Below, in pieces: positions 2,613 through 64,000 of a DNA stretch of 64,000 nt. The first letter of the stretch is position 1. The number at the start of each line of letters is the position of its first letter. The notes under the pieces were generated by a model. The model was not told the DNA's origin. It saw nothing but the letters and a program-made list of their open reading frames with translations, and made no database searches. Both the position numbers and the translations under genes were made by a program. The DNA comes from Candidatus Saccharimonadota bacterium (lineage in GTDB: Bacteria; Patescibacteriota; Saccharimonadia; Saccharimonadales; SZUA-47): positions 917,298-981,297 of the forward strand of contig CP065013.1 of the NCBI GenBank assembly GCA_016700315.1. The letters run 5' to 3'.

Positions 2613-3533
2613 ATGAAACAAATCAAGAGACATAAAAAACAGAAGATGTCGATATTTTTGGTATTTTTAGGCTTTTTAGGGCTAATACTACTGATGGCCT
2701 ACTTCCTGGCTGGTCAAGATGTGGCGCTATTACAGCCTAAAGGTTTTATATCCCACGAACAATTCAAATTGTCGATGACGGTCTTAGCAATTGTTTTAGC
2801 AATTGGGATTCCCTCTGTGGGATTGCTATATTTAATTGTCTGGCGATACCGTGATACCAACACCAAGGCCACTCGCGAAACAGAATCAGAACGCAGTGCG
2901 CTATTCCTGTTTGTGCTTTGGATGATACCAATTAGCGTCGGGGTACTTATTTCACTGATAGTTTGGGAGTCTACCCACCGCCTAGCACCACAAAAACCAA
3001 TTAGTGAGATCGAAAAACCTCTGGTGGTTAAGGTTGTTGCGATGCGTTGGAAATGGTTATTCCTTTACCCAGAGCAGCAAATCGCTTCGCTGAACTACGT
3101 TCAAATTCCCGAAAACACACCCGTTAGGTTTGAGGTAACGGCCGACGATGCGCCTATGACCTCTTTTTGGATACCGCATTTGAGCGGGCAAATATACTCA
3201 ATGACAGGACATGTTAATAGAATCAACGTAATGGGTACCGAAGTAGGTGACTATACTGGTAGCACCCCTGAGATTAATGGTGAAGGATTCGCTGGAATGA
3301 GATTTAAAACCCGTGTTAGCTCGGCGCAAGACTTTGAGGCATGGGTAATTAGTACAAAAGCTAATAACAACACCCTTTCTTTAAGTAAATATGATGAACT
3401 ACTACTGCCAACCGAAAAAACGGACAGTGTTTTTTACGCAAGCTATGATCAAAATCTCTATGATAAAATGCTTATGAAATACATGTCGATGCACGGCGAC
3501 GACAGCGAAACTAATCACGAAGGGCACCATTGA
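2613..3533 (+). CDS. cyoA: cytochrome o (bo3-type) quinol oxidase subunit II
   Basis: Two N-terminal TM helices plus a cupredoxin-fold periplasmic domain (VVAMRWKWLFLYPEQ..., VRFEVTADDAPMTSFWIPHLSGQIY). First gene of a four-gene oxidase operon. Its stop overlaps the next start. Confidence 0.85.
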   Translation: MKQIKRHKKQKMSIFLVFLGFLGLILLMAYFLAGQDVALLQPKGFISHEQFKLSMTVLAIVLAIGIPSVGLLYLIVWRYRDTNTKATRETESERSALFLFVLWMIPISVGVLISLIVWESTHRLAPQKPISEIEKPLVVKVVAMRWKWLFLYPEQQIASLNYVQIPENTPVRFEVTADDAPMTSFWIPHLSGQIYSMTGHVNRINVMGTEVGDYTGSTPEINGEGFAGMRFKTRVSSAQDFEAWVISTKANNNTLSLSKYDELLLPTEKTDSVFYASYDQNLYDKMLMKYMSMHGDDSETNHEGHH

Positions 3534-5617
3534 GAGAATTTTTAATCGGTAAGCTAGACGGCAATTCATTGCCTCACGAGTGGTTCACAATTGGTGGAAC
3601 GGCTGCCTTCGTTTTAATGATGCTATTGATTGCTGGCTATCTCACTTACAAAAAACGCTGGAAATGGCTATGGAAAGAATGGTTAACATCTGTTGATCCC
3701 AAAAAAATTGGCATAATGTATTTCATAGTCGGCGGATTTATGCTTTTGCGCGGAATCCTTGACGCACTAATGATTTGGCTGCAGCAATCTCTAGCAGCTG
3801 GTGCCTCTCATGGCTACCTATCTTCTGAACACTTTCAGGAAATATTTACGGCTCATGGCAATATCATGGTCTTTTTTGTGGCCATGGCTTTTATTTTTGG
3901 GCTGATAAACTACATAGTACCCCTCCAGATTGGCGCGCGAGATCTGGCTTCTCCATTCATGAATACATTAGGCTTTTGGCTGTTTGTCGGCGGCGTGGTG
4001 ATGGTGAATATGTTTTTCCTTTTTGGCGGACAATACGCTGCAACCGGCTGGCTGGCTGTAGCACCACTTTCCGGAAAGGAGTTTAGCCCTGGGGTCGGGG
4101 TCGATTATTGGATATGGAGTTTACAGATTTCAGGTATTGGTACGACTCTCGGCGCGATTAACTTCATAATGACAATATTAAAAATGCGTGTAAAAGGAAT
4201 GACGCTGTGGAAGATGCCGGCTTTCACCTGGGGATCTCTATGCAGCATGTTAATGGCAGCAACTATTTTTCCAATTCTTACCATGACGCTTTTTTTAGTC
4301 TTTTTTGATCGCTACTTAGGCACTCACTTTTTTACGACAACTGCCGGTGGTAACGCCATGCTATATTCAAACCTGATTTGGATGTGGGGACATCCGGAAG
4401 TCTATGTATTAATTTTGCCAGCATATGCTATTTTCTCTGAGATAGTTGCAGTATTTAGTCGCAAACCGGTGGCTAATTATAAATCAAACGTTTTTGGTCT
4501 TATTGGCGTCGCGTCGCTATCACTCGTAGTTTGGTTACATCACTTCTTCACTATGGGTTCGAGTGCCGATGTTAATGCCTTCTTCGGTATAATGACGGTT
4601 TTCGTCGCCATACCAACAACTGTTCTGGTTTTTAACTGGATAGCTACAATGTACAAGGGACGGATTAGGCTAGACACACCCATGCTCTGGTTTCTGGGTT
4701 TTGCCGGCGTCTTTGCTATCGGCGGCATAACTGGAGTCTTATTGGCTGTTCCTTCAATTGATTTCCAGCTACACAATAGCCTATTTTTGGTGGCTCATTT
4801 TCACTCGACGGTTATCGGCGGAGTAGTGTTCGGGGTATTCGCCGGTATATCATATTGGTTCCCAAAATTTACAGGATTCAGACTAAATGAGCGTTTAGGA
4901 AGATATGCCTTTTGGCTATGGATTGTTGGTTACTTTATGTCCTTTGTACCGATGTTTATTTTAGGTCTGATGGGCGCTTCAAGAAGATTAGACCATTATG
5001 ATGCTTCGACCGGCTGGCAACCATTTTTCATTGTTTCGTTGATCGGTGGCATAGTTATCACTGCTGGGGTTACCATGCAAGTAGTGCAAATTATAGCTAG
5101 TTTTATAGAGAAGAAGCGTTTGATGGATACTACAGGAGACCCTTGGGACGCCCGCACGCTAGAGTGGTCAGTAGCATCACCAGCTCCAGCCTACAACTTC
5201 GCCGCGCTTCCTGACGTAAGTGAACGCGACGGTTTCTGGGCAATGAAACAAACTGGGCTACAAAAGCCGACATACGAAGATATTCATATGCCCAAAAATA
5301 CCGCAAGCGGCATATACCTATCTATCTACGCATTCTTAACTGGTTTTGGTTTTGTGTGGGATATTAAGTGGCTGATTATCGTCGGTATTGTTGGAATGAT
5401 ATACACGTTTATCACTCGGACCTTTGATGAAGACTCGGAATACAAGATTGCAGCAAGCGATGTAGAAAAATCGGAGCAAGAACATTTTGTCAAGATGCAA
5501 GAAGTAGAGAAAAGCCGAGATCAGAGCAAGATCGGCCCTGAGTATGATATGGGCTTAAGTGACTTCATTAAGATCGTTTGGAAATGGTTGCTTGGCTTAG
5601 CGAGGCACAAAAAATGA
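3530..5617 (+). CDS. cyoB: cytochrome o quinol oxidase subunit I (heme-copper oxidase)
   Basis: 695 aa. Heme-copper oxidase motifs are present: WMWGHPEVYVLILPAYAIFSE, WLHHFFTMG, VAHFHSTVIGG. TTG start overlaps the cyoA stop. Confidence 0.95.
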   Translation: MREFLIGKLDGNSLPHEWFTIGGTAAFVLMMLLIAGYLTYKKRWKWLWKEWLTSVDPKKIGIMYFIVGGFMLLRGILDALMIWLQQSLAAGASHGYLSSEHFQEIFTAHGNIMVFFVAMAFIFGLINYIVPLQIGARDLASPFMNTLGFWLFVGGVVMVNMFFLFGGQYAATGWLAVAPLSGKEFSPGVGVDYWIWSLQISGIGTTLGAINFIMTILKMRVKGMTLWKMPAFTWGSLCSMLMAATIFPILTMTLFLVFFDRYLGTHFFTTTAGGNAMLYSNLIWMWGHPEVYVLILPAYAIFSEIVAVFSRKPVANYKSNVFGLIGVASLSLVVWLHHFFTMGSSADVNAFFGIMTVFVAIPTTVLVFNWIATMYKGRIRLDTPMLWFLGFAGVFAIGGITGVLLAVPSIDFQLHNSLFLVAHFHSTVIGGVVFGVFAGISYWFPKFTGFRLNERLGRYAFWLWIVGYFMSFVPMFILGLMGASRRLDHYDASTGWQPFFIVSLIGGIVITAGVTMQVVQIIASFIEKKRLMDTTGDPWDARTLEWSVASPAPAYNFAALPDVSERDGFWAMKQTGLQKPTYEDIHMPKNTASGIYLSIYAFLTGFGFVWDIKWLIIVGIVGMIYTFITRTFDEDSEYKIAASDVEKSEQEHFVKMQEVEKSRDQSKIGPEYDMGLSDFIKIVWKWLLGLARHKK

Positions 5618-6201
5618 ATCATGTAGAGTCGCACGAAGAAGCTTCAACCGACCGAGTGATGTTTGGCTTTTGGATCTATCTTATGACCGACCTCCTTATG
5701 TTCGCTGCGCTGTTTGCTGTTTTTGCTGTACTGCGTAACAATACGGCGGGCGAGCCCTCAGGGAAAGATATTTTTAGCCTACCGTTCGTTTTAATTGAGA
5801 CGTTGATACTTCTTACCAGCAGTTTTACCTGTGGCCTTGGCATGATTGCTGCACGAAACAAGGATAAAGCTAAAGTAATGCTTTGGTTCGGTGTAACCAT
5901 GCTACTTGGTTTAATATTCTTAACACTTGAAATTAAAGAATTTAGTACCATTCTTCACGAAGGGCATAGTTGGCGCGACAGTGCCTTTTTGTCTTCATTT
6001 TTTGTGCTTGTTGGCACTCATGGACTGCATATTACATCTGGCATACTGTGGTTGGCAGTTACTTTACGCTACATTGCACGCCAGGGCCTGAATCATCATA
6101 AGATTCGAAAGCTGGCACTCATTAGTTTATTTTGGCACTTTTTGGACATCGTTTGGATTTTTATCTTCACGGTAGTTTATTTAATGTCATTCATAAATTG
6201 A
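5614..6201 (+). CDS. cyoC: cytochrome o quinol oxidase subunit III
   Basis: COX3-like five-TM protein (FFVLVGTHGLHITSGILW, FWHFLDIVWIFIFTVVY). Start chosen at the ATG forming an ATGA overlap with the cyoB stop; the ORF-track start is 5578. Confidence 0.88.
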   Translation: MNHVESHEEASTDRVMFGFWIYLMTDLLMFAALFAVFAVLRNNTAGEPSGKDIFSLPFVLIETLILLTSSFTCGLGMIAARNKDKAKVMLWFGVTMLLGLIFLTLEIKEFSTILHEGHSWRDSAFLSSFFVLVGTHGLHITSGILWLAVTLRYIARQGLNHHKIRKLALISLFWHFLDIVWIFIFTVVYLMSFIN

Positions 6202-6210
6202 GGCTGAGGT

Positions 6211-6885
6211 ATGAGAAGTCACGAACACAAATCTTCGCACGGTAGCATAAAATCATATGTAGTTGGCTATCTTCTTTCGCTAGCATTTACATTGGTTCCT
6301 TACTATATGGTTAGGTCCGGCGGTATGACCGGCCAAAAATTATTGATTACTGTTTTGGCTTTTGCCTTCATACAAATGTTTATCCAGATATTTTTCTTTC
6401 TTCACCTTGGTCGCGGGCCAAAGCCTTTTTATAATGTTATATTTTTCACTGCTACATTCGGTATGATTTTGGTCGTGGTCTTTGGTTCGATATTCATCAT
6501 GGACAATCTTTATCGCAACATGAGTCCTGCTGAGGTGACCACAAAAATTGGCGAAAAAGAAGGTATCGCCGAAATTGCTGGCAAGAAAACAGGTGGATGC
6601 CAAGGTTTAGGCGTTAACCACAAAGCTGTAATAAAAGACGAGCTAGTCACTCCAGATCATATTCATGCGGTTTTATGCGACACGCTGACGATTACCAATC
6701 TTGACAGCATCAACCGCGAAATAACTTTCGGCGAGCACGAAAACCACGAAGCCTATGGTGGTGTATACGAGATATCACTAGCGGCTGGTAGGTCTAAAAC
6801 CATAACCCTCAACACTGCGGGGCAGTATAAGTTTCACGATCACGTAGACCCAACTGTTGGTGCGTTCTTTACTGTAGAGAAGTAA
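6211..6885 (+). CDS. cyoD: cytochrome o quinol oxidase subunit IV fused to a C-terminal soluble cupredoxin-like domain
   Basis: The N-terminal ~110 aa is a three-TM CyoD-like segment (HGSIKSYVVGYLLSLAFTLVPYY). The C-terminal ~105 aa is beta-rich with a cupredoxin-like pattern (LTITNLDSINREITFGEH...GQYKFHDHVDPTVGAFFTV). Confidence 0.75.
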   Translation: MRSHEHKSSHGSIKSYVVGYLLSLAFTLVPYYMVRSGGMTGQKLLITVLAFAFIQMFIQIFFFLHLGRGPKPFYNVIFFTATFGMILVVVFGSIFIMDNLYRNMSPAEVTTKIGEKEGIAEIAGKKTGGCQGLGVNHKAVIKDELVTPDHIHAVLCDTLTITNLDSINREITFGEHENHEAYGGVYEISLAAGRSKTITLNTAGQYKFHDHVDPTVGAFFTVEK

Positions 6886-8497: not shown

Positions 8498-8817
8498 TGG
8501 CAGGGGCAGTAGGAGTCGAACCCGAATAGTGCCAGTGGCACTATGAGTTCACGGGTAGATTGCTTATATGTTTAAAAGTCGTGTTTCGAATTGGTACATA
8601 CTTATCTGATTGTATGGCGCTATGGTTCGACTCTGTGATAAATCGTTCGATTGTTCGTGGCAGGGGCAGTAGGAGTCGAACCCGAATAGTGCCAGTGGCA
8701 CTATGAGTTCACGGGTAGATTGCTTATATGTTTAAAAGTCGTGTTTCGAATTGGTACATACTTATCTGATTGTATGGCGCTATGGTTCGACTCTGTGATA
8801 AATCGTTCGATTGTTCG
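8498..8817. repeat. two identical 160-bp tandem units, each starting (plus strand) with the 25-nt 3' end of tRNA-Trp
   Basis: Units 8498-8657 and 8658-8817 read identically. Each begins TGGCAGGGGCAGTAGGAGTCGAACC, the same 25 nt that begin the complement of the intact tRNA at 8818. Confidence 0.9.
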
Positions 8818-8892
8818 TGGCAGGGGCAGTAGGAGTCGAACCTACCTCTAAGGTTTTGGAGACCTTTATACTAGCCGATGTACTATGCCCCT
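8818..8892 (-). tRNA. trnW: tRNA-Trp (anticodon CCA), CCA-encoded
   Basis: The reverse complement folds as a cloverleaf. Acceptor AGGGGCA/TGCCCCT, D arm GTAC/GTAT, anticodon stem AAGGT/ACCTT with loop CTCCAAA, T arm GTAGG-TTCGACT-CCTAC, discriminator G, then CCA. Confidence 0.9.
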
Positions 8893-10417: not shown

Positions 10418-10525
10418 AACATGAGCTCTAAAACTTTAAAATTTTTTAGCTTTCATTTTTAGTATTTCTTTGGACTTAGTTCTTAGAATTTAGAATTTTT
10501 TCCCGCTTGTGTTTAAATATATGTA

Positions 10526-11632
10526 ATGGCATTCACAACAAACACCGAAGACGCTACGCTAGACCAGCAGCGCCTAAAAAGCCTCGTCAACAGCATGGCA
10601 GATGGCGTTATTGCCACTGATCAAAAAGGCACTATCGTGCTCTATAACGGCGCGGCGATGAACATTCTTGATCGCAACACAGAGATCAAGGGCAGAAAAA
10701 TCGGAAACGTCATCAAAACCATCAACGGCAAACACGAAGAAGTAGATTTCCAAAAAATGGTACTGGGAACAGAAACTCAAACCGCCAGCCGTGACCTCCG
10801 AATTGTTTATGAAGATGAAAGCCAAGTAAACTTATACACCAGCATCGCACCGGTACACTTAGGCTATGGCCAGCAAGGGGATCGAGGTTTTGTAATTCTA
10901 CTCCGTGACATAACTCATGAGAAATCTCTTGAAGAAGAACGTAACGAGTTTATTAGCGTTGTTAGTCACGAGCTACGCACGCCTATCGCCGTAACAGAGG
11001 GTATGATTGGTAACGCCGAATTTTTACTCGATAAATCATCAGATATAAATCAAATTAAGTCGATGCTCAAAAGCGCCCATGAACAAGTTTTATTCTTGGC
11101 TCAGATGATTAATGACCTTTCGACTCTATCTCGCGCCGAACGAGGCAAACTTCAGGCCGATAGGGAAATAATAAACATTACAGATCTGTTAAAAGATCTT
11201 CAGAAAAACTACGAGCAAAGCGCATTTGCCAAGGGGTTAAAACTATTCACAGAAACAGCACCAGATTTAGAAGTTTTATACTCGAGTAAACTATACGTCC
11301 GCGAAGTACTACAAAACTTTATTACAAATGCCATTAAGTACACCGAGACGGGTCACGTCAGTGTTTCTGCCAGACCTTACCAAGACGGTGTAGAGTTCCG
11401 GGTAAGCGATAGTGGCATTGGCATTGGCAAAGCCGACCGCGAAAAAGTTTTTGAAAAGTTTTTTCGAGCCGACAATAGTAAAACCCGCGAACAAAGCGGC
11501 ACTGGGCTGGGACTCTACGTCACTATGAAGTTGGCTAAGATACTAGGAGCAGATATATCTTTGGAGAGCCAGCTAGGCGAGGGGAGTACGTTTACGATAC
11601 ACGTACCGAACTTGCCAGAAAGTGGCGAGTAG
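10526..11632 (+). CDS. cytoplasmic PAS-domain sensor histidine kinase (no adjacent response regulator)
   Basis: PAS-like N-terminus (MADGVIATDQKGTIVLYN), HisKA H-box VSHELRTPI, and HATPase_c N/G boxes (NAIKYT, DSGIGI, GTGLGL). Confidence 0.9.
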   Translation: MAFTTNTEDATLDQQRLKSLVNSMADGVIATDQKGTIVLYNGAAMNILDRNTEIKGRKIGNVIKTINGKHEEVDFQKMVLGTETQTASRDLRIVYEDESQVNLYTSIAPVHLGYGQQGDRGFVILLRDITHEKSLEEERNEFISVVSHELRTPIAVTEGMIGNAEFLLDKSSDINQIKSMLKSAHEQVLFLAQMINDLSTLSRAERGKLQADREIINITDLLKDLQKNYEQSAFAKGLKLFTETAPDLEVLYSSKLYVREVLQNFITNAIKYTETGHVSVSARPYQDGVEFRVSDSGIGIGKADREKVFEKFFRADNSKTREQSGTGLGLYVTMKLAKILGADISLESQLGEGSTFTIHVPNLPESGE

Positions 11633-11903
11633 TTAGTAGTTAGTAGTAAGCGTAAAATTCTAAATTCTAAGCACTAAATTCTAAAATAGACCCTAGACCC
11701 TGGGCCCTGGTCCCTAGTCGGTACGGGGGTAATACTTGCTAACTACTAACTACTAACTACCAGTCCCTAGACCCTGGACCCTGGTCCCTAGTCCCTAGTC
11801 GGTACGGGGTTAATACTTGCTAACTACTACCAACTACCAACTACTAACTACTAGCCCATAGCTCTAATCACTCTAACCTCTAACCTCTAACCTAATCAAA
11901 GCT
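11633..11903. repeat. mosaic heptamer-repeat intergenic element, copy A (forward orientation)
   Basis: Consecutive blocks of 7-bp tandem units (TTAGTAG, ATTCTAA, ACCCTAG, CTAACTA, CTCTAAC). Also the conserved core AAGCGTAAAATTCTAAATTCTAAGCACTAAATTCTAAAATAGACCC. An internal ~68-bp direct duplication is present. Confidence 0.85.
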
Positions 11904-11910
11904 TGCGGCA

Positions 11911-14899: not shown

Positions 14900-14945
14900 A
14901 TCGTAATACCGAGAATCGGTAATCGATAATCAAAAATCGTAAATT
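14900..14945. repeat. period-7 array in the rplK 5' leader
   Basis: ATCGTAA TACCGAG AATCGGT AATCGAT AATCAAA AATCGTA AATT, ending immediately before the rplK ATG. Confidence 0.75.
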
Positions 14946-16043: not shown

Positions 16044-16223
16044 CTCATTATAAACAATTAATTTGTGGGAGTCTGAATCATAGTAAGGCGCCACTACCAC
16101 GAAAGGAGAGCTTCGCGGGCTCCGAAAAAGGGAAAAGAGCAGCCCGAGCAAAAAATCATATTTTTTGCTCGGCGCGTTGAGGAAAACCGATAGGTTGTCC
16201 TCAAAAGCGAAGCGAAAAAACTT

Positions 16224-17201: not shown

Positions 17202-17202
17202 A

Positions 17203-17597
17203 AAAATACCGAACACTGAATACCGTATACATAGTACCTCGTACTCCGTACTGCGTACTGTTCAAATAGAGCCAAGAGCCATGATTAGGTTAGAGGTTAT
17301 AGGTTAGAGGTTAGAGTGATTAGAGCTATGGGCTAGTAGTAGTTAGTAGGTAGTAGTAGTTAGTAGGTTGTAGCTAGTAGCAAGTAGATATTACCCTACC
17401 GCGTACCCCGTACCGCGTACAGTTCAAGTAGAGCCAAGAACTAGGGTCTAGGGTCTAGGGTCTAGGGTCCAGGGTCTATTTTAGAATTTAGTGCTTAGGA
17501 TTTAGAATTTTACGCTTACTACCAACTACCAACTACTTACTACTACTCAAAGGTTCATACTTTATACATGATACTTAATACTTGATACTATCTAGTG
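17203..17597. repeat. mosaic heptamer-repeat intergenic element, copy B (reverse orientation)
   Basis: Reverse complement of the A/D module order: (AGGTTAG)n, AGTGATTAGAGCTATGGGCTAG, TAGTAGT blocks, GTACCGC blocks, CAAGAGC block, (CTAGGGT)n, then TATTTTAGAATTTAGTGCTTAGGATTTAGAATTTTACGCTT. An extra partial copy sits at the left end. Confidence 0.85.
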
Positions 17598-17600
17598 CTT

Positions 17601-17808: not shown

Positions 17809-18080
17809 TTATCCGCCGACAATTGCACCCTCAGCAATGGTTAGGCTGGTAAGGTTCGGGTTACCATATATACTCCAAGTTTTTGCACCCTCAGCAATGG
17901 TTAGGTTGGTAAGGTTCGGGTTATCATATATACTCCAAGCTTTTGCACCCTCAGCAATGGTTAGGTTGGTAAGGTTCGGGTTATCATATATACTCCCAGC
18001 TTCTGCACCCTCAGCAATGGTTAGGTTGGTAAGGTTCGGGTTACCATATATACTCCAAGTTTTTGCACCCTCAGCAATGG
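17809..18080 (-). pseudogene. out-of-frame continuation of the LRR-repeat gene (4.5 further intact repeat units ending ...AEGAIVGG-stop)
   Basis: Translating the reverse strand in the shifted frame gives uninterrupted NPNLTNLTIAEGAKTWSIYG-type units down to the TAA at 17809-17811. The span 17809-19883 is 2075 nt, one nt short of a multiple of 3. Confidence 0.65.
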
Positions 18081-18470
18081 TTAGGTTGGTAAGGTTCGGG
18101 TTATCATATATGTCCCAGCTTCTGCACCCGCAGCAATGGTTAGGTTGGTAAGGTTCGGGTTATCATATATGTCCCCAGCTTCTGCACCCTCAGCAATGGT
18201 TAGGTTGGTAAGGTTCGGATTTTCACATATGCCCAGAGTTCTTGCACCCTCAGCAGTGGTTAGGCTGGTAAGGTTCGGGTTACCATATATACTCCAAGTT
18301 TTTGCACCCTCAGCAATGGTTAGGTTGGTAAGGTTCGGGTTATCATATATACTCCCAGCTTCTGCACCCTCAGCAATGGTTAGGCTGGTAAGGTTCGGGT
18401 TACCATATATACTCCAAGTTTTTGCACCCTCAGCAATGGTTAGGCTGGTAAGGTTCGGATATAGAAAAAT
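17815..18470. repeat. about 11 tandem 60-bp repeats encoding 20-aa LRR-like units
   Basis: The unit GCACCCTCAGCAATGGTTAGG(C/T)TGGTAAGGTTCGGGTTA(C/T)CATATATACTCC(A/C)AG(T/C)TT(T/C)T recurs with exact 60-nt phase, except for one 59-nt unit near 18112. Confidence 0.95.
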
Positions 18471-19883
18471 ATCATTTACCTCTGCTGCCGCTTCAACTGC
18501 TAGTTCTAGGTTTACGACAAAGCCTTTATCGTTATAGGTATAGTGGTAAGTATGGGTTGGACTACCTTTATCACCGTAAAGCACTAGCTCATGTCGGCCA
18601 TCAGCAAGGACTTTAATATTAGATCTGGTATCGTGATCAATCCCTGCTAGTTTACCCTGACCGTCTTTACTGACGTAGAGTGTTGGCGAGAGCATGTCGT
18701 AGTGACCTTTGTCTATTTTTGTTACTAGGCCGTTTTTGATGTGCTCATAATGACCTAGGTATACGTTGTCCTGTTCGTAGTAGTAATAGTGGATACCGCC
18801 GTCATTGTCTAATGTATAGTTGTCACCCAGTTTCGTATTTCCAAGCTTCATCAAATCATCACGCCCAACATGATGATAAAGTGCATGTCTTAGTCCGTGA
18901 GCAACAGCGTCAAGATCGTTGCTGTAAGTATTATCTGGGTTAGTGACTGTATGATTGTAGCGGTTTTTAATAGATACATGGTTGCCACTGCGGCTGATCT
19001 GTACCGACATACTGGATACTCCGTATGGGTCTTCACGGGTTGGTGCAAGCCTGATTAGATCATACCTATCAGTTTCAGGGTCGTACCTGTTTATGATACG
19101 AAGGTACTGCTTCCAGGCCTCGCTTAAGTTATCGGCAGTCAGCTCATTAGCCGGCAGAGTATCATCGGCATCGTTGTGACGCAGCCACATAATATGGTAC
19201 TGCTTTAGTCTCTCTGGTATTTCTTTAAAGGTGCAAAGCCTCTCGCCGCCTCTGTAATCACGCTCAAAGGCCGCTACTTCATCTACCAAGTTAAGCGGAC
19301 CATGAAGTTTGTAGCCTACCGACGCGGCTAGCTCGTATGGGTTCTTAGGCTCCGTCAGCCGAATCTCTCCCTGCTCATAGTAGTGTCTCTCTAAAATTGC
19401 GGCTATATAACTGTGGTTAGCTCGCAGTGTCTGTAGGGCCTGGTGGGGGTTGGGTATAATCTTCTTCAGCTGAAAAGCAAAGTCCAATTGTTCCATGTAG
19501 GGAGCTAATAACTCACGGGCACCGTTACCGGCATAGCTTCCGTCGCTATTAAGCTCGCCTTTAATAAACGAGTCGCCATACCAGTTATTTAGCCGGTTAG
19601 TGTTAGACCTTAATATCTTTTTTCTGGCTGCCTCTTCGGTGTCTAAAGTGACTGGTGTTTCTGTGTCTGATTGATGGCTTTCTGATCTGTCGGTTAGAGC
19701 AGTAGCGCCAAGCTCTCTAGAACTTAAGCACGGCGTACTCTCAGCTGTGCTTTCAAGATAAAACTGCGTACGTTTATCGCCAGCTGTACCTGGAACCATA
19801 ACGCCACTAATATCTCCAACACCTAACTCGGTTGTCGATAAGAACCCATAAATAGGTTGTTTAGTAAGTAAATCTCCGTGCAT
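18081..19883 (-). CDS. large cytoplasmic-type protein: unknown ~460-aa N-terminal domain plus C-terminal LRR-like 20-aa repeats (NPNLT(S/N)LTIAEGA...); frame ends prematurely inside the repeats
   Basis: 600-aa ORF. The repeats resemble BspA-type leucine-rich repeats. No signal peptide seen. The stop at 18081 follows a 1-nt deletion relative to neighbouring units. Confidence 0.75.
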   Translation of the reverse strand: MHGDLLTKQPIYGFLSTTELGVGDISGVMVPGTAGDKRTQFYLESTAESTPCLSSRELGATALTDRSESHQSDTETPVTLDTEEAARKKILRSNTNRLNNWYGDSFIKGELNSDGSYAGNGARELLAPYMEQLDFAFQLKKIIPNPHQALQTLRANHSYIAAILERHYYEQGEIRLTEPKNPYELAASVGYKLHGPLNLVDEVAAFERDYRGGERLCTFKEIPERLKQYHIMWLRHNDADDTLPANELTADNLSEAWKQYLRIINRYDPETDRYDLIRLAPTREDPYGVSSMSVQISRSGNHVSIKNRYNHTVTNPDNTYSNDLDAVAHGLRHALYHHVGRDDLMKLGNTKLGDNYTLDNDGGIHYYYYEQDNVYLGHYEHIKNGLVTKIDKGHYDMLSPTLYVSKDGQGKLAGIDHDTRSNIKVLADGRHELVLYGDKGSPTHTYHYTYNDKGFVVNLELAVEAAAEVNDIFLYPNLTSLTIAEGAKTWSIYGNPNLTSLTIAEGAEAGSIYDNPNLTNLTIAEGAKTWSIYGNPNLTSLTTAEGARTLGICENPNLTNLTIAEGAEAGDIYDNPNLTNLTIAAGAEAGTYMITRTLPT

Positions 19884-25353: not shown

Positions 25354-25588
25354 ATTTTTGTATTGTAGTTGTCGGTTAAATCTGCTATAATTCATCTGTT
25401 ACCGAAGACAGCGACGGAAGAAATTCTTGAAAAGGTCGCCGAGGCAATAAATCTTTATTGTTTTTGAGCATTAGATTGCGTCTTCGATTAAGAGGACGTT
25501 TTTTGATTCTCGGTAACAAAAGGCGAGCAACAATACAAAGGTCGAGCTGCTCAACAAAAAATAAACTAACTGAAAAGGAGAATTAGTT

Positions 25589-25665
25589 AGAGACAAGAGA
25601 TAAGAGACAAGAGATAAGAATACATTACTTCTCTTGCTCGTGACTCGCGACTCATAACTCTATTT
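25589..25665. repeat. period-7 arrays in the rplJ leader
   Basis: GAGACAA GAGATAA GAGACAA GAGATAA, followed by CTCTTGC TCGTGAC TCGCGAC TCATAAC TCTATTT. The two blocks are partly complementary. Confidence 0.75.
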
Positions 25666-25667
25666 TC

Positions 25668-26192
25668 ATGGCACTAACCAAAGTAAAAAAGAACGAAGTT
25701 GTGCAAGAAGTCTCAGACCTTCTGGCAACTTCAAAGATGACAGTGGTCAGCCAGTACCAAGGAGCCACTGTTAAATCACTACAGTCCCTCAGAAAGCATG
25801 CAAAGCAAGCTGGCACAACTGTAAAAGTTGTTAAAAACCGACTTGTAGTACAAGCCCTGAAGGCAAATGACGGCCTAAAGGACGTTTCGACAAGCGAGCT
25901 AAAAGGCATGCTGCTTTATGCCTTCAACCCGCAAGACGAAGTAGCTGCTGCTCAAGTTTTGGATAAATTTGCCAAAGACGAGCCAAGCCTCAAATTTGTC
26001 GGAGCAATTAGCGCAGACGGCAAGTTTTTGGACGCTAATGAGGTGACAACACTGGCTAAAATGCCTAGCAAAAATCAGCTTATCGCTGAAACAGTTGCTA
26101 TGCTACTAGCGCCAGTCAACGATGTTACCAACGCACTTTCTGGCAACTTGCACGGATTGCTCGACGCAGTAGCCGCCAAAGCATCGGCCTAA
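25668..26192 (+). CDS. rplJ: 50S ribosomal protein L10
   Basis: 174 aa. Typical L10 N-terminus (KKNEVVQEVSDLLATSKMTVVSQYQGATVKSLQSLRK). Lies directly upstream of rplL. Confidence 0.9.
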   Translation: MALTKVKKNEVVQEVSDLLATSKMTVVSQYQGATVKSLQSLRKHAKQAGTTVKVVKNRLVVQALKANDGLKDVSTSELKGMLLYAFNPQDEVAAAQVLDKFAKDEPSLKFVGAISADGKFLDANEVTTLAKMPSKNQLIAETVAMLLAPVNDVTNALSGNLHGLLDAVAAKASA

Positions 26193-26204
26193 AGGCCAAA
26201 AAGA

Positions 26205-26260
26205 ACGATTAACGATTAAGGATTTACTTCTTTAATCATTCATCACAAATCATTAATCGA
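26205..26260. repeat. period-7 array (CGATTAA / TCATTAA type) between rplJ and rplL
   Basis: ACGATTA ACGATTA AGGATTT ... TAATCAT TCATCAC AAATCAT TAATCG. The left and right halves are partly complementary. Confidence 0.7.
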
Positions 26261-27346: not shown

Positions 27347-27380
27347 TAGGCTTAATGTGGTAAAATGAATTTGCATAATA

Positions 27381-27475
27381 ATATCTAGAGTGCGGGAAGG
27401 GAACTGACCCTCTGATCCGCCGACAACCGAGACGATAAGTCAAACGGTGTCAAATTCAGCCGAAAGGAAAGATAT
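27381..27475 (+). promoter_or_regulatory. SAM-I (S-box) riboswitch aptamer upstream of metK
   Basis: P1 is ATATCT...AGATAT. Core reads AGAGTGCGGGAAGGGAACTGACCCTCTGATCCGCCGACAACC...ACGGTGTCAAATTCAGCC, matching the SAM-I consensus blocks AGAG-GG-GA-GGGA-CUG-CCC-UGA-CC-GCAACC...GGUGC-AA-UCC with a few substitutions. Confidence 0.75.
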
Positions 27476-27495
27476 GCATAAGATTATCGACAACT

Positions 27496-27533: not shown

Positions 27534-27598
27534 GTGAAACTAGGCTTAATTTTCAATTATCAATTTACAATTTTTCAAAACAAGGAGAATAAAATTAC

Positions 27599-33887: not shown

Positions 33888-33888
33888 G

Positions 33889-34345
33889 GGTTAGGGCGAG
33901 TTGATAGTTTATGGTTGATGGTTTATAGAAGAGCCAGGGTTAGGTTAGAGGTTAGAGTGATTAGGGCTACGGACTAGTAGCAAGTAGCTAGCAGTTAGTA
34001 GTTAGTAAAAATTACTCCGTACCGCGTACCGTTCAAGTAGAGTCAAGAGTCAAGAGTCATGAGCCAAGAACTAGGGACTAGGGACTGGTAGTTAGTAGTT
34101 AGTAGTTAGTAGTTAGTAGTTAGTAGTTAGTAAAAATTACTCCGTACCGCGTACCACAGGGGGGCGGGGGGGGGGGAGACTGTACTGCGTACCTGTCGTC
34201 CAAATAGAGCCAAGAGTCAATAGTCACGAGCCAAGAACTAGGGTCTAGGGTCCAGGGTCTATTTTAGAATTTAGGGCTTTAGAATTTAGAATTTTACGCT
34301 TGCTACTTACTACTAACTACTAGCTACTTGCTACTAGCCCCTCAA
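33889..34345. repeat. mosaic heptamer-repeat intergenic element, copy C (reverse orientation, internally duplicated, contains a G6CG11 tract)
   Basis: Same module set as copy B. The block GTTAGTAGTTAGTAAAAATTACTCCGTACCGCGTACC occurs twice. G6-C-G11 lies at 34159-34176. It ends with the conserved TATTTTAGAATTTAG...GAATTTTACGCTTGC core. Confidence 0.85.
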
Positions 34346-34403
34346 CGCTACAAGCTAATCGCTAGCCCACCTCGCTGCTCATTCGTCATTCTGACGAATT
34401 GGG

Positions 34404-35948: not shown

Positions 35949-35980
35949 AGTGGACCAGTTTTCAATTTTCAAAGAATCTT

Positions 35981-36010
35981 CTTCGTTCATCGTTCATCGT
36001 TTATCGTTAC
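35981..36010. repeat. period-7 array (CGTTCAT) between ybaB and recR
   Basis: CTTCGTTCAT CGTTCAT CGTTTAT CGTTAC. Confidence 0.8.
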
Positions 36011-36032: not shown

Positions 36033-36638
36033 TTGAGTGTTTTACCCAAGTCATTACAGGATTTGATCGAAGCTTTGGGTGCTTTGCCCGGAGTCGGCAT
36101 TCGCAGTGCGGAGCGCTACGCCTACTTTTTATTGAAGCGCGAGCCCGCAACCTCCCAGAAACTGGCTGATGCTCTCCGCACGTTACACGAAGGCATTAAG
36201 ACATGTCCTATAACCTACATGTGGATCGATAGTTCTAAAAATGTAAGCGAGCTATACGACGACAATAACCGTGACAAAACGGTTGTTGCAGTTGTGGCTG
36301 ATGCATTTGACGTGATCGCCTTAGAACGAACCGGTCTGTACCGCGGAACTTACCATGTTCTGGGAGGGCTAATATCGCCGATAGACGGCGTCGGGCCAAA
36401 TGAACTTCACATTCCCGAGCTAATTAAGCGTATCGATAAAGACAATGTGGCTGAAGTCATTTTAGCGACTAATGCTGGCGTCGAAGGTCAAACAACCGCA
36501 TTATATATTCAGCAACAGTTAAGTGACACAAAAGTAAAAATAACGCGTCTTGCACAAGGCCTGAGCGTAGGAGTCGACTTAGAATACGCCGATCAACTCT
36601 CGCTCGGCCGCGCCTTAGAAGGCCGCACCATTTTATAA
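36033..36638 (+). CDS. recR: recombination protein RecR
   Basis: LIEALGALPGVGIRSAERYAYFLL (HhH), then Toprim (VVAVVADAFDVIALERTGLYRGTYHVLGG, EVILATNAGVEGQTTALY). Confidence 0.9.
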   Translation: MSVLPKSLQDLIEALGALPGVGIRSAERYAYFLLKREPATSQKLADALRTLHEGIKTCPITYMWIDSSKNVSELYDDNNRDKTVVAVVADAFDVIALERTGLYRGTYHVLGGLISPIDGVGPNELHIPELIKRIDKDNVAEVILATNAGVEGQTTALYIQQQLSDTKVKITRLAQGLSVGVDLEYADQLSLGRALEGRTIL

Positions 36639-36667
36639 CTGTTTACTGTTTACTGTTTACTGTTTAG
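36638..36667. repeat. period-7 array (CTGTTTA x4) between recR and the DHH gene
   Basis: ACTGTTTACTGTTTACTGTTTACTGTTTAG immediately after the recR stop. Confidence 0.9.
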
Positions 36668-36675
36668 AATTAGAG

Positions 36676-39633: not shown

Positions 39634-40589
39634 AAGAACCCCGTCAAATTAAGACAGACGAGCACACAATAAAGTCGGGCTGGTTAGAAGTCGGTCATGG
39701 CCATAAAGTGTGGTATGAGCAGTGGGGCAACAAAGATGCAAGCGTTCCAGTTCTCTATTTTCACGGAGGTCCCGGCGGCGGTTATAAGCCATCTCACAAA
39801 TACAATCTAGACCCAAAGAAACACCAGGCTATCATCTTCGACCAACGAGGTTGTGGCAATTCGCTACCTTACGGCCGCACTGATCATAATCGTACCGAAG
39901 ATCTAATTAATGATGCGCTTATGATACTCGACGAGTTGGGAGTAAAAAAAGTTCACATTCAAGGTGGCTCATGGGGTTCAACGCTAGCACTTCTTTTTGC
40001 CATAAAGCACCCAGAAAAGTGCCAGGACTTAGTTATCCGTGGAGTTTTTACGGGTACCCAATCCGAAATTAACTGGATAGATAAAGGCTTATTCATCAAC
40101 CATTATCCAGAAGTCTGGGAGCGCTTTTTGGGAACCGTACCTGCTGAAAACCGAAGCAAGCCGGCGGAATATCATTATGAGATTTTAAATGGCAGCGACC
40201 CCGAAAACTTTCAGACTTCTGCAAAAGCTTTGTCTGAGCTTGAAGGTCCGCTACTAGCCTTCGATTGGCCGGGTTTCAATGACATACAGCTAGACAATAA
40301 ACCAAATGATATGCCCGAAGAATTTGACTTTGTGCCTTACAAAATATTTGCCTGGTACCTAAGCCACTCATGTTTTTTGAGTGAGAGCTACATCTTAAAA
40401 AACGCCAGCAAAATAAACTGCCCGCTCTTCATAATACAAGGAAGATACGACATGTGCTGCCCGCCAATAACGGCATATAAGATTCACAAACTAGTAAAAA
40501 ATAGTAAGCTGTTCATGACGCTTGCTTCTCATAGTAACGACCCCGAAACTAGGTCTGTAAACCAGGCACTAATTCAAACAATCTATTGA
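39618..40589 (+). CDS. pip: prolyl aminopeptidase (proline iminopeptidase), alpha/beta hydrolase
   Basis: FHGGPGGG, FDQRGCGNS and the nucleophile elbow GGSWGSTLA. GTG start after AAGGAAGG. Confidence 0.85.
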   Translation: MVSSIEEPRQIKTDEHTIKSGWLEVGHGHKVWYEQWGNKDASVPVLYFHGGPGGGYKPSHKYNLDPKKHQAIIFDQRGCGNSLPYGRTDHNRTEDLINDALMILDELGVKKVHIQGGSWGSTLALLFAIKHPEKCQDLVIRGVFTGTQSEINWIDKGLFINHYPEVWERFLGTVPAENRSKPAEYHYEILNGSDPENFQTSAKALSELEGPLLAFDWPGFNDIQLDNKPNDMPEEFDFVPYKIFAWYLSHSCFLSESYILKNASKINCPLFIIQGRYDMCCPPITAYKIHKLVKNSKLFMTLASHSNDPETRSVNQALIQTIY

Positions 40590-47828: not shown

Positions 47829-47964
47829 ATGCTAACCATTATAGAGACTTTTGCCAGCAAATACAGTATAATAACAGAGCAAATTTATAAATCTACAAAT
47901 TTATTCAAAAATGCTCGCAAGCAATCTAGAATTTAGCATTTGAGATTTAGAATTTAAAAAGTCA

Positions 47965-48039
47965 TGGGGCGTCGCCAAGTGGTAAGGCACCAGGTTTTGG
48001 TCCTGGCATTCAGGAGTTCGAATCTCTTCGCCCCAGCCA
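47965..48039 (+). tRNA. trnQ: tRNA-Gln (anticodon TTG), CCA-encoded
   Basis: Acceptor TGGGGCG/CGCCCCA, anticodon stem CCAGG/CCTGG with loop TTTTGGT, T arm AGGAG-TTCGAAT-CTCTT, discriminator G, then CCA. Confidence 0.9.
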
Positions 48040-55004: not shown

Positions 55005-55005
55005 G

Positions 55006-55310
55006 GAGATAGGGGAATAGTAGTAAGTAGTTGGTAGTTGGTAGTAAGCGTAAAATTCTAAATCCTAAGCACTAAATTCTAAATAGACCCTGGACCCAGG
55101 ACCCTAGACCCTAGACCCTAGACCCTAGCTCTTGGCTCATGACTCTTGACTCTTGGCTCTATTTGAACAGTACGCAGTACAGGGTACGCGGTACGGAGTA
55201 ATATCTACTAGCTACCAACTACTAACTACCAACAACTAGTCCGTAGTCCTAATCACTCTAACCTCTAACCTCTAACCTCTAACCTCTAACCTCTAACCTC
55301 TAACCTAATT
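55006..55310. repeat. mosaic heptamer-repeat intergenic element, copy D (forward orientation)
   Basis: Module order: TAGTAAG/TGGTAGT block, AAGCGTAAAATTCTAAATCCTAAGCACTAAATTCTAAATAG, (ACCCTAG)n, CTCTTGG/CTCTTGA block, GTACGCA/GTACGCG block, CTAACTA block, TAATCACT, then (CTCTAAC)x7. Confidence 0.9.
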
Positions 55311-55313
55311 GTC

Positions 55314-57634: not shown

Positions 57635-57695
57635 CTAACTACTAACTACCATCTACCATCTACCATCTACCAACTACCAACTACCAACTACCAAC
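57635..57695. repeat. period-7 array: CTAACTA x2, CTACCAT x3, CTACCAA x4
   Basis: Read directly at 57635-57695, immediately downstream of the aquaporin stop. Confidence 0.9.
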
Positions 57696-60709: not shown

Positions 60710-62122
<1,413 letters not shown>

Positions 62123-62160
62123 TTATCGACTTTATGAATTACTGCTTATACAATTACTTT

Positions 62161-62412
62161 TCATACCGAATCTCTGTGACCTCTTTCTACATCTGTTAAG
62201 CCATGAATATAGCCAAGTACATAGTGAGTTAGGGGGGGCTGAATATTGCCGCGTAGCCCTTCGGCAACTGTTAATCCTTCGTGGGCGGCATCTACCACTG
62301 CTTCTACGATATATGCCAACACACCATCGGGCAGGTCAAGGTATTTAAACCTCTCAGCAATAGGTTTAGCGAGCTCTCTAGCGGTAGCCTCTCCGGGCAT
62401 CAATTCAGCCAT
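62161..62412 (-). CDS. hypothetical ~83-aa protein inserted between atpG and atpD
   Basis: ATG at 62410-62412 with a GAAGG SD 5 nt upstream; the ORF track starts at TTG 62424. No family recognised. Confidence 0.5.
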   Translation of the reverse strand: MAELMPGEATARELAKPIAERFKYLDLPDGVLAYIVEAVVDAAHEGLTVAEGLRGNIQPPLTHYVLGYIHGLTDVERGHRDSV

Positions 62413-62463
62413 TCTAACCTTCAAGCCCTTCCTTGTTTATTCCTCGCCGCTGACTCTCAGACA

Positions 62464-62727
62464 TTATTTCATAACCTCCGGTTTTGGCTTTGCGAAAGAC
62501 AACATTGCTGTGCTGGACAAAACGCTGGCTACCCTGTTCGCTGTCGGGTCATCTATTCCAGCTAGCACAGCTAGTCTGGTGGCAAACTCCTCAAGCGTTA
62601 ATAGAGTACTGCCCCGATAAATGTCGGCATTTGGCCCCCAAGCCTCCTTTTGAATAGCCCCAGTATTCTCAACACCACTGATAAAGCTATCAACCTCTTC
62701 TCGTGTTCCTAAAGGAATGCCACTCAT
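62464..62727 (-). CDS. hypothetical 87-aa protein inserted between atpG and atpD
   Basis: Strong SD AAAGGAGG 7 nt upstream of the ATG. No family recognised. Confidence 0.55.
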   Translation of the reverse strand: MSGIPLGTREEVDSFISGVENTGAIQKEAWGPNADIYRGSTLLTLEEFATRLAVLAGIDDPTANRVASVLSSTAMLSFAKPKPEVMK

Positions 62728-62739
62728 TTAAAGGCCTCC

Positions 62740-62781
62740 TTTAATCATTAATCGTTCATCATTAATCATCATCATTTCATC
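62740..62781. repeat. period-7 array (ATTAATC/GTTCATC type) in the leader of the 62464-62727 ORF
   Basis: TTTAATC ATTAATC GTTCATC ATTAATC ATCATCA TTTCATC. Confidence 0.8.
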
Positions 62782-62866
62782 GCCTCCGCGCCTCGTCCAA
62801 GCAAGCTACCAGCTTCCGACAACAAAATTAAATTTTGTGTCTGCAGCTTACCGCTGCTTCTCCTCT

Positions 62867-62894
62867 CAAAATCGCAATTCCTCTTGCGATTTTG
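62867..62894 (-). promoter_or_regulatory. perfect 11-bp-stem hairpin ~40 nt downstream of atpG (intra-operon attenuator/processing or stabiliser candidate)
   Basis: CAAAATCGCAA (62867-77), loop TTCCTC, TTGCGATTTTG (62884-94). Confidence 0.45.
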
Positions 62895-62931
62895 TTTAAC
62901 CAGTGTGGATAAAATATTGCTAATCATAGAC

Positions 62932-63804: not shown

Positions 63805-63820
63805 AATGAACTCCGTTCAT

Positions 63821-63850
63821 AGTAGTAAGTAGTAAGTAGTAAGTAGTAAG
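63821..63850. repeat. period-7 array (GTAGTAA x4) immediately upstream of atpG
   Basis: AGTAGTAAGTAGTAAGTAGTAAGTAGTAAG, read directly. Confidence 0.9.
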
Positions 63851-63855
63851 CATTT

Positions 63856-64000
63856 TTACTTAACCACCTTCAACGATTTAATTAGCCCGTTTAGTACCTT
63901 GCTAACTTCTACGCTGAGATCAGCAAGCTGTTTAAATAAAGCTTTGTCTACAAATTTTAGGTCACGCGCAATTAATAGTTGGTTTTGAACTTCAGTAGTC
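63856..64000 (-). CDS. four-helix-bundle protein (23S rRNA intervening-sequence-protein family), C-terminal fragment; gene runs off window end
   Basis: The reverse frame reads ...QLLIARDLKFVDKALFKQLADLSVEVSKVLNGLIKSLKVVK-stop. This matches the characteristic C-terminus of that family (IARDLGY...EEL...KMLNGLIKSL). Confidence 0.55.
   Translation of the reverse strand, partial: TTEVQNQLLIARDLKFVDKALFKQLADLSVEVSKVLNGLIKSLKVVK

Follow-up and report, generated by a model that had tools for sequence, protein, structure and literature searches.

Short heptanucleotide tandem arrays in the intergenic spacers of a Saccharibacteria genome

Heptanucleotides are described as the most abundant class of long simple-sequence repeats (LSSR) in many prokaryotes, intergenic and patchily distributed, and polymerase slippage over a 7-nt contact with DNA has been proposed as their cause (Mrazek et al. 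2007, as reported in PMC4679880 and PMC4692102). In this study, a 64,000-nt stretch of the genome of Candidatus Saccharimonadota bacterium (GenBank assembly GCA_016700315.1, contig CP065013.1, positions 917,298 to 981,297 of the forward strand; hereafter the window) was analyzed for short tandem arrays of 7-nt units, or micro-arrays, such as the four CTGTTTA copies that lie between recR and a downstream DHH gene. To our knowledge, the length of DNA held by the polymerase is the sole published idea on why the unit should be seven; heptamer tandem repeats (STRR, TAACTGA and GGGAATC repeats) have been noted for decades, and we know of no study that established the reason for this number or a role for the repeats. 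A literature account of such arrays in Saccharibacteria or Patescibacteria was not found. The sequence-only reading that drew attention to the arrays held that they are not a standard bacterial feature, a view that overlooks the published heptamer repeats, including examples upstream of start codons and in ribosomal-protein operons (PMC4679880, PMC4692102).

The TAACTGA repeats of marine Beggiatoaceae, some cyanobacteria and Bacteroidetes are present in 2–6 copies just upstream of start codons, also inside ribosomal-protein operons, and show 7-nt indels between strains, and the corresponding spacers of relatives are shorter and repeat-free (PMC4679880). The arrays of the window resemble them on each of these points, and other heptamer words are mixed into the TAACTGA system within Microcystis, Gramella and Aequorivita (PMC4679880). 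In contrast, the TAACTGA system has one dominant forward word that often replaces the Shine-Dalgarno (SD) sequence and closes all three frames, whereas the window has many words in inconsistent orientation, retains its SD sequences and shows no such closure. The only trace of tandem TAACTGA in the window is a single 1-mismatch match at 43328, which is not an array. The short tandemly repeated repetitive (STRR) sequences of heterocystous cyanobacteria have the units CCCCAGT (STRR1), TTGGTCA (STRR2) and CAACAGT (STRR3). They are similar to the arrays described here in consisting of several heptamer words that are tandemly amplified, intergenic, dispersed and often gathered in composite clusters, but belong to a different phylum and use different units. 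With the units as given above, no tandem STRR2 is found in the window, and the 1-mismatch look-alikes at 34074 (STRR1; near match CCCTAGT) and at 62071 and 46373 (STRR3; near match AAACAGT) are about as many as chance would give by a rough estimate. Three heptanucleotides of Calothrix PCC 7601 are cited in PMC4692102.

The GGGAATC and GGGGAYT repeats of Xanthomonas and Nostoc (PMC4692102) are also intergenic heptamer simple-sequence repeats, and occur between the same genes in related species with variation in length and sequence. They are capable of forming G-quadruplexes, and hence prefer four units, whereas the words of the window are A/T-rich and without G tracts. Tandem GGGAATC and GGGGATT are absent from the window, and identity with the STRR, TAACTGA or GGGAATC units is ruled out, there being only chance-level near matches. 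The contingency-locus repeats of Haemophilus, Neisseria and Moraxella have units of 1–5 nt, many copies and hypervariable counts, and are associated with genes for surface structures. Short tandem units near promoters or in 5' untranslated regions, and slippage as the mutational mechanism, are points in common with the window, but the short arrays here are invariant and lie ahead of housekeeping genes. The general class of heptanucleotide LSSR is the best match, with its tandem 7-nt units, the dominance of heptamers among long repeats, intergenic bias, patchy occurrence among close relatives and slippage in unit steps, although earlier reports concern large, often GC-rich genomes (Burkholderia, Xanthomonas, cyanobacteria, actinobacteria) and not a small-genome bacterium of the candidate phyla radiation. 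The window arrays consist of head-to-tail 7-nt units beyond chance, favor period 7 and are concentrated in non-coding DNA, and whole-unit change between strains was seen in an 8-unit array and in composite elements, but not in arrays of 3–4 units. They fit the heptanucleotide class, but not the units, the orientation rule or the stop and SD traits of the named systems. We consider it slightly better than an even bet (a probability of roughly 0.55) that the micro-arrays are STRR-like heptanucleotide simple-sequence repeats that arose when short stretches were amplified locally and in tandem, in a 7-nt register, in the course of a recent burst specific to this lineage, and that the short arrays were then fixed and held by the ordinary constraint on leaders and promoters.

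Tandem Repeats Finder (TRF) was run at a minimum score of 30, and null expectations came from first-order Markov shuffles in which the dinucleotide transitions of each spacer were resampled. Thirty-six non-redundant period-7 arrays were called in the 64 kb, and 34 were in the 8.47 kb of intergenic DNA (outside long open reading frames, ORFs), where 0.54 were expected; the remaining tandem periods were at background, save for 14, a multiple of 7. When four large elements (see later) were excluded, the 40 small spacers (6449 nt) contained 6 stringent period-7 segments, compared to 0.05 expected, and none of periods 4–6 or 8–12. Exact arrays of at least three copies numbered 11 for period 7 in the window (0 expected) and zero for periods 5, 6 and 8–12, and there were 29 exact two-copy heptamers instead of the expected 3.8, with no excess at periods 5 and 8. 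Arrays cover 62 of 55,737 coding bases (0.1%) against about 17% of intergenic bases, the share being 3% in divergent (promoter) spacers, 16% in co-directional and 37% in convergent ones. The specific period-7 excess in spacers and 5' leaders, extending into operons (rplJ-rplL, ybaB-recR-DHH, atp genes), that had been proposed from the bare sequence is borne out. Since the same arrays are found in independent ENA, Logan, JGI and NCBI assemblies, an assembly artefact is ruled out.

The arrays are not everywhere. Among spacers of at least 25 nt, 16/42 have an array and 26/42 (62%) have none, and when the small spacers are pooled, bases match at lag 7 at a rate of 0.293, compared to 0.27–0.29 at adjacent lags. 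The description of the arrays as pervasive is an overstatement, and the idea that 7-nt phasing is a general property of non-coding DNA, or that all of it shares one global 7-nt phase, is contradicted by these two figures. The large fraction of array-free spacers together with the flat pooled signal shows that the period-7 signal is made up of discrete local arrays.

The array at the recR-DHH junction illustrates how such an array could arise. Two features overlap there:

36638–36666, + strand: ACTGTTT/CTGTTTA array, x4.1, 100% unit identity by TRF.
36642–36670, + strand: promoter-like site TTTACT-17 nt-TAGAAT, 9/12 matches in a consensus scan.

The four CTGTTTA copies originally noticed are thus confirmed without a mismatch. 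They take up 29 nt of the 37-nt spacer, from the third base of the recR stop codon TAA (36636–36638) to a point 9 nt 5' of the DHH start codon ATG (36676), and the spacer has the same sequence in 10 conspecific strains. The gene calls around this and the other arrays are supported by NCBIfam (YbaB/EbfC, RecR, CysS, DnaX, DnaB, AtpG, AtpD), and the DHH gene itself, which matches the NCBIfam NrnA model below its cutoff, is described here as NrnA-like. Among 157 relatives' loci none has an array in the recR-DHH spacer, and in more distant relatives the junction is often 0–40 nt. Array-free relatives show a single-copy box at this junction (AAACTGTT(A/T)TACT or AACTGTTAGAAT), and many have a conserved box a few nt 5' of the DHH start, with the sequence TAAACTGTTATACT, TGTTATAAT or, in relative L088, AACTGTTAGAAT. 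The motif TGnTAnnnT is found within 40 nt upstream of the DHH start in 25/84 relatives, compared to 2/84 control windows. If the four CTGTTTA units are collapsed to one, the result (TTATAACTGTTTAGAATTAGAG) aligns closely by eye with TAATAACTGTTAGAATAGG of L088, so that the array apparently adds three copies of the 7-nt sequence found at the upstream limit of an extended -10-type box. The presence of single-copy TAAACTGTTATACT in relatives, and of AACTGTTAGAAT in L088, at the same position makes the array look like one of local origin. A word stock common to the array, the site at 62071–62102 and the composite elements of relatives L081 and L129 may nonetheless exist, and is a caveat to that origin. 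The array would have lengthened an ancestrally short junction to 37 nt while leaving the -10 box intact, and by chance would have put TTTACT 17 nt ahead of TAGAAT, which is the conserved -10-like box and lies 5 nt 5' of the ATG. The TTTACT hexamer is supplied by the array, but the combination alone is not significant (4 region hits versus 2.2 expected), so a promoter role for 36642–36670 would be a lead only.

The other micro-arrays of the window are as follows:

10483–10498, + strand: TTAGAAT x2.3, perfect; word common to the large composite elements.
14910–14939, + strand: AATCGGT/AATCGAT/AATCAAA/AATCGTA x4.3, 73% unit identity, immediately upstream of rplK.
25589–25619, + strand: AGAGACA/AGAGATA x4.4 (period 14, x2.2), in the rplJ leader, 3' of the Rfam L10 leader (25384–25514).
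25634–25661, + strand: CTCTTGC/TCGTGAC/TCGCGAC/TCATAAC units, degenerate, in the rplJ leader; partly complementary to the AGAGACA array.
26204–26224, + strand: AACGATT x3, clear array in the rplJ-rplL spacer.
26232–26258, + strand: TTAATCA-type units x3.9, 70% unit identity, in the rplJ-rplL spacer.
27548–27574, + strand: AATTTTC-type units x3.9, 80% unit identity, between the S-adenosylmethionine (SAM) riboswitch and metK.
35979–36008, + strand: TTCATCG/TCGTTCA x4.3, clear array in the 84-nt ybaB-recR spacer.
47923–47956, + strand: TTTAGAA-type units x4.9, 75% unit identity with indels, upstream of tRNA-Gln; word common to the large elements.
57637–57695, no strand assigned: CTAACTA/CCATCTA/CCAACTA x8.4, between the genes for a MIP channel and a PGA_cap protein, both on the - strand; words common to the large elements.
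62071–62102, no strand assigned: TGTTGAC/TGCTGAC/TGTTTAC/TTTTTAC x4.6, degenerate, in the atpD leader.
62741–62776, no strand assigned: TTAATCA/TTAATCG/TTCATCA units, directly 5' (- strand) of an AAGGAGG SD and an 87-aa ORF in the atpG-atpD interval.
63821–63850, no strand assigned: AGTAGTA x4.3, perfect; lies 16 nt 5' of atpG (- strand), where a strain-variable small ORF adjoins.

All of the arrays cited in the initial reading are present, some of them degenerate (70–81% unit identity), and that at 265–295 was not called by TRF at minimum score 30. The start of atpD is placed by gene callers at about 62047 (a 445-aa call). No Rfam family covers any array, the window hits at gathering threshold being two tRNAs, the L10 leader (25384–25514) and the SAM riboswitch (27378–27478). 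The two rplJ-leader arrays (25589–25661) are predicted to pair as a periodic hairpin of short helices broken every 7 nt (fold of 25575–25690: minimum free energy -27.7, z = -3.4 versus shuffles). A layout of one array followed by a partly complementary one (AGAGAYA/CTCTTGN; AGGAACN/GTTCCTA) recurs in distant lineages at different genes, and by inspection such inverted pairs lie upstream of ybaB and recR in L048 (6117–6213) and L052 (ybaB-recR spacer). An ATCR core recurs every 7 nt at four unlinked loci (14915–14939, 26235–26259, 35989–36006 and 62744–62768), always on the + strand whatever the gene orientation; its 7 pattern matches compare with 0.02 expected, but the pattern was found post hoc and is not treated as significant. 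Among distant relatives the core recurs only in L009, as an ACCATCG array.

Variation within the species was followed in 57 conspecific contigs of 97–99.7% identity to the window, from four independent data sources (ENA, Logan, JGI and NCBI). They were found by exact-protein look-ups with RplL, YbaB, RplK, the MIP channel, AtpG and a 105-aa ORF, a look-up with the DHH protein giving no match, and each locus was compared across 8–11 strains. Although these strains differ at 1–3% of positions, the unit number of the 3–4-unit arrays is constant. The ybaB-recR array at 35979 has the same length in 10 strains, the rplJ-leader array at 25589 is invariant in 8, the AACGATT array at 26204 has no length change and one segregating site among 10, and the rplJ-rplL spacer keeps its length across the arrays. 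The rplK-leader array at 14910 is invariant in 8 strains, even where the small-ORF cassette upstream differs, as is the metK-leader array at 27548 in 10 strains, though adjacent homopolymer runs vary; the sole difference at 62741 is a 3-nt ATC indel in a trinucleotide part of the array. At 63821, strains with identical AtpG carry unrelated small ORFs and no array. Copy-number variation, suggested at the outset as something to look for between strains, is therefore missing from the named array (10 strains) and from the other 3–4-unit arrays. The proposed slippage in a 7-nt register agrees with the behavior of longer tracts, which change by whole units: the 8.4-unit array at 57637 is shorter by exactly two units (-14 nt) in strain L181, and a large composite element differs from that of the same strain by +7, -7, -7 and -21 nt; it does not extend to the 3–4-unit arrays, in which no change was seen. 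For a templated-addition enzyme, the alternative process named in the sequence-only reading, the 64-kb window gave no evidence.

Such unit-number changes in the longest arrays might suggest phase-variation contingency loci, in which gain or loss of units switches the downstream gene, and in Moraxella, expression of uspA2 is controlled by repeats in the 5' untranslated region (cited in PMC4679880). The constant unit number of all 3–4-unit arrays in strains 1–3% divergent rules out phase variation at these, and the genes concerned are for housekeeping (ribosomal proteins, recR, ATP synthase) and not surface or virulence functions, so that we regard this explanation as very improbable. In the micro-arrays 3/356 positions (0.84%) segregate, as compared to 5.5% of third codon positions (Fisher p = 7e-6), 1.15% of first and second positions, and 2.15% of other intergenic positions (p = 0.11). 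This low figure and the constant lengths indicate that the short arrays are fixed and non-neutral, but no stronger constraint can be shown for them than for the remaining non-coding DNA of this compact genome, and their A/T-rich composition may lower their mutability.

RecR-centered scans of genome and metagenome contigs recovered only metagenome-assembled genomes of Candidatus Saccharibacteria/Saccharimonadales, with 61–74% RecR identity, and an L10 search gave two intermediate relatives with the same gene order, L218 (81% identical) and L224 (72%). The syntenic DNA of L218 (9 kb) and L224 (16.5 kb) has no period-7 segments. In the window, the rplJ-rplL spacer measures 80 nt and has two arrays; in L224 it is array-free and 20 nt long, and in L218 it reaches 125 nt and contains another, structured element. 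The rplJ-leader array is missing from both, L224 having a single CTAAGAGACAAATAA at this point, the rplK-leader array is missing from L218, and the spacer 3' of dnaB is 54 nt in L224 compared to a 516-nt composite element in the window. Conservation of the arrays at orthologous sites, another expectation of the sequence-only reading, is thus not seen beyond the species. Across 157 relatives, ybaB and recR are separated by a median of about 9 nt, a length that we infer to be ancestral, and arrays with other words arose in this spacer independently in L035, L071 and L081. A hot spot for array formation at this spacer is not supported, since 3–5/157 relatives is roughly the background of about one array per 28 kb.

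Elsewhere in the clade, L081 has 9 arrays in 19 kb and L047 has 9 in 20.6 kb, mostly with other words, so that these two and the window species reach 4–6 arrays per 10 kb, compared to about 0–1 in most relatives. A survey of 160 other Saccharibacteria loci (2.06 Mb) gave 13 exact arrays of at least three copies for period 7 and none for periods 6 and 8–12, and two-copy heptamers were at expectation (112 versus 116). The preference for 7 is clade-wide and the dense bursts are lineage-specific. L081, whose RecR is 71% identical and which is as distant as array-free L224, has composite heptamer elements of its own at 1970–2721 and 3272–3477, and shares the words CTCTAAC/AACCTCT, TGTTTAC and a GTACTCC-like word with the window. 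Such sharing points either to a common ancestry of long standing, followed by loss in other lineages, or to horizontal transfer.

The four large elements set apart in the statistics are:

11628–11910, no strand assigned: composite element 1, blocks of different heptamer words in fixed order.
17202–17600, no strand assigned: composite element 2, several word blocks reverse-complemented relative to elements 1 and 4.
33888–34403, no strand assigned: composite element 3, 516 nt, between dnaB and the next gene.
55005–55313, no strand assigned: composite element 4, blocks of heptamer words.

They resemble copies of one composite repeat family made of heptamer-word blocks. Elements 1 and 4 have AGTAGTT-AAATTCT-TAGACCC at one end and CTACCAA-CTCTAAC at the opposite end. 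In elements 2 and 3, several of these blocks recur in reverse-complement orientation, and three of the four elements sit between convergent genes. Across strains, the elements swap sequence between copies and differ either by multiples of 7 nt or by an 81-nt block: this block of element 1 is absent in two strains, element 3 varies from 480 to 743 nt, and element 4 is the one with the four indels relative to L181 given above. The micro-arrays might then be solo-block fragments of these elements, scattered into short spacers by a mobile or recombining repeat family. Four loci use words that also occur as tandem blocks in the large elements, namely TTTAGAA (10483 and 47923), CTAACTA/CCAACTA (57637) and AGTAGTA (63821), the last lying at the junction of a strain-variable cassette, and both the exchange of sequence between copies and the CTCTAAC and TGTTTAC-type words of the L081 elements are in keeping with this origin. 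However, the words of the named array and of most operon-internal arrays do not occur in the large elements (CTGTTTA, TCGTTCA, AACGATT, TTAATCA, AATCGAT, AATTTTC and AGAGACA are all private, and several of them have the ATCR core in common), the collapsed CTGTTTA array matches the ancestral local sequence, and no transposase, terminal repeats or target-site duplications were seen in connection with the elements. We regard it as unlikely that the micro-arrays in general came about in this way.

Their positions raise the question of function. Arrays occupy the 5' leaders or operon spacers of rplK, rplJ, rplL, metK, recR, the DHH gene, atpG and atpD, and could be cis-regulatory elements that are read as RNA or single-stranded DNA in 7-nt steps by an oligonucleotide-binding (OB)-fold protein such as a cold-shock protein or S1, tuning the translation or mRNA stability of the downstream gene. 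A model of this kind was proposed for the TAACTGA repeats, with S1, Csp and Csr as candidate readers, and the same paper quotes earlier work in which Bacillus subtilis CspB bound heptamer repeats, with one protein to each heptamer (PMC4679880). In the window, single-word arrays tend to be less structured than shuffles (z of +0.65 to +1.0, not significant), several sense strands appear pyrimidine-rich by inspection (CUGUUUA, UUCAUCG, UUACUAC, AAUUUUC), polymorphism is below that of third codon positions, and the ATCR core holds period 7 at four loci, all of which would suit such a reader. Against this, the words vary between loci and their orientation is not kept (TTAATCA at rplL and CTGTTTA at 36638 are in the sense orientation, but both are also found as antisense words, at 62741 and 62071, respectively), the density of arrays is highest in convergent spacers, and sister lineages with the same genes and operon order are array-free. 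Moreover, SD strength is alike in array-preceded genes and others (p = 0.74), constraint does not significantly exceed that of other intergenic DNA, and no CSP-like gene or motif was found in the 64-kb window, a small part of the genome. A dedicated regulatory role of this type is, in our view, improbable.

The proposal that the arrays are stop barriers, in which a stop-bearing unit repeated at a period coprime with 3 closes all frames, is scarcely credible. Some units do contain TAA or TAG, and TAACTGA repeats have the barrier property (PMC4679880), but only 1/13 micro-arrays closes all three sense frames, compared to 43% expected for random heptamer arrays of like composition, and in four arrays, the named one among them, the sense strand is free of stops. 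The remark in the sequence-only reading that the stop-barrier idea is not universal was well founded. Replacement of the SD by arrays was also rejected (mean anti-SD duplex energy -3.75 versus -3.28 kcal/mol, p = 0.74). So was the idea that the arrays serve as tandem -10 boxes: by eye, 6/13 arrays match TATAAT at five of its six positions, against about one third expected by a rough estimate, which is not significant.

We therefore return to local amplification as the preferred explanation. A 7-nt stretch already in the spacer, or a block copied from the dispersed composite elements, would be duplicated head to tail and then extended by slipped-strand mispairing in whole 7-nt steps. As 7 is not a multiple of 3, arrays survive only outside genes, and they are largely kept out of divergent promoter regions. 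Arrays of 3–4 units would be too short for frequent slippage and so are fixed in the species, whereas those of about 6 or more units would still gain and lose units. No single dedicated function is envisaged; the arrays would be near-neutral, tolerated spacer material, and once fixed in leaders and promoters would be held by the same purifying selection as the remaining non-coding DNA.

Several observations weigh against this explanation. The spread among relatives is patchy, which a universal property of polymerases does not explain, and this points to some lineage-specific factor. Related words occur at unlinked loci (the ATCR core at four; TGTTTAC-type words twice in the window, the second time at 62071–62102, and also in the composite elements of L081 and L129), which purely local seeding does not predict. 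Slippage does not account for the register of 7, no slippage event was seen in any 3–4-unit array in 8–11 strains, and the micro-arrays do not evolve as neutral DNA (3/356 positions versus 5.5% of third positions, p = 7e-6). A bolder explanation, which seems rather unlikely, is that the array-rich lineages (the window species, L081 and L047) carry a factor that writes DNA in 7-nt steps, be it an enzyme, altered replication or repair, or a mobile composite element, and that this is absent from the syntenic sisters. Short arrays would later have been co-opted as heptamer-register leader or promoter modules, read for example by OB-fold proteins, hence their low polymorphism. If this were true, contrasting the gene content of array-rich and array-free Saccharibacteria would reveal the cause of heptamer repeats, a question open since the cyanobacterial STRR.

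The window has a number of other features. At the atpA-atpG junction (63805–64000; strains L181 and L199–L208) there are unrelated small ORFs of 103, 110 or 136 aa, without a Pfam match, next to identical AtpG, and strain-variable small ORFs also occur in the nusG-rplK interval (75 or 91 aa) and in that from atpG to atpD (87+83 or 87+176 aa). It is uncommon for conserved operons to contain small cassettes that vary in this way. The atpG-atpD interval of about 0.8 kb (62114–62931) contains the 87-aa ORF on the - strand, which is preceded by the strong AAGGAGG SD and matches no family. At tRNA-Trp (8818–8892, - strand), a perfect direct repeat of 160 bp (x2.2) spans 8498–8842, and each copy opens with the 25-nt 3' end of that gene, TGGCAGGGGCAGTAGGAGTCGAACC; from their sequence, the repeats look like tandem att-type remnants of integrations at tRNA-Trp. 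At tRNA-Gln (47965–48039), unrelated DNA replaces the sequence upstream of AGCCAAAAATTG at the tRNA 3' end in L209, L210, L212 and L214, a pattern resembling an integration breakpoint. At 17823–18458, a 60-bp unit is repeated in tandem (x10.6, 91% identity); the repeat overlaps the 3' end of a 600-aa ORF (18081–19883, - strand) without a Pfam match, and its translation would consist of 20-aa repeats. The spacer around it measures 879 nt in the window and 628–629 nt in two strains. A structured element of about 100 nt, GAGCAGCCCGAGCAAAAA...TTTTTGCYCGGCGCGTTGAGGAAA...CCTCAAA, is found in the rplA leader of the window (16110–16223) and in the rplJ-rplL spacer of L218 (8523–8647), so that the two lineages have it at different sites. 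The cumulative GC skew is highest at about 38–40 kb and genes converge at 40589/40583 (+ to -), so the region near 40.6 kb looks like a replication terminus. A haem-copper oxidase cluster of four genes (COX2, COX1, COX3 and COX4_pro domains) occupies 2613–6885, adjoining a gene for a UbiA prenyltransferase.

On its own, the finding reveals no new mechanism. It places heptamer arrays in a streamlined Saccharibacteria genome with scarce non-coding DNA, of which they make up roughly 13–17%, and shows short arrays that are fixed and seldom substituted next to long ones in which whole units continue to be gained or lost. As genetic tools for Saccharibacteria now exist (PMC10633639), the deletion or resizing of arrays is conceivable in principle. 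The burst is recent, being common to conspecific strains and absent in the syntenic next lineages, with separate bursts in a few unrelated ones, and its cause may therefore be approachable by comparing the gene content of these lineages.

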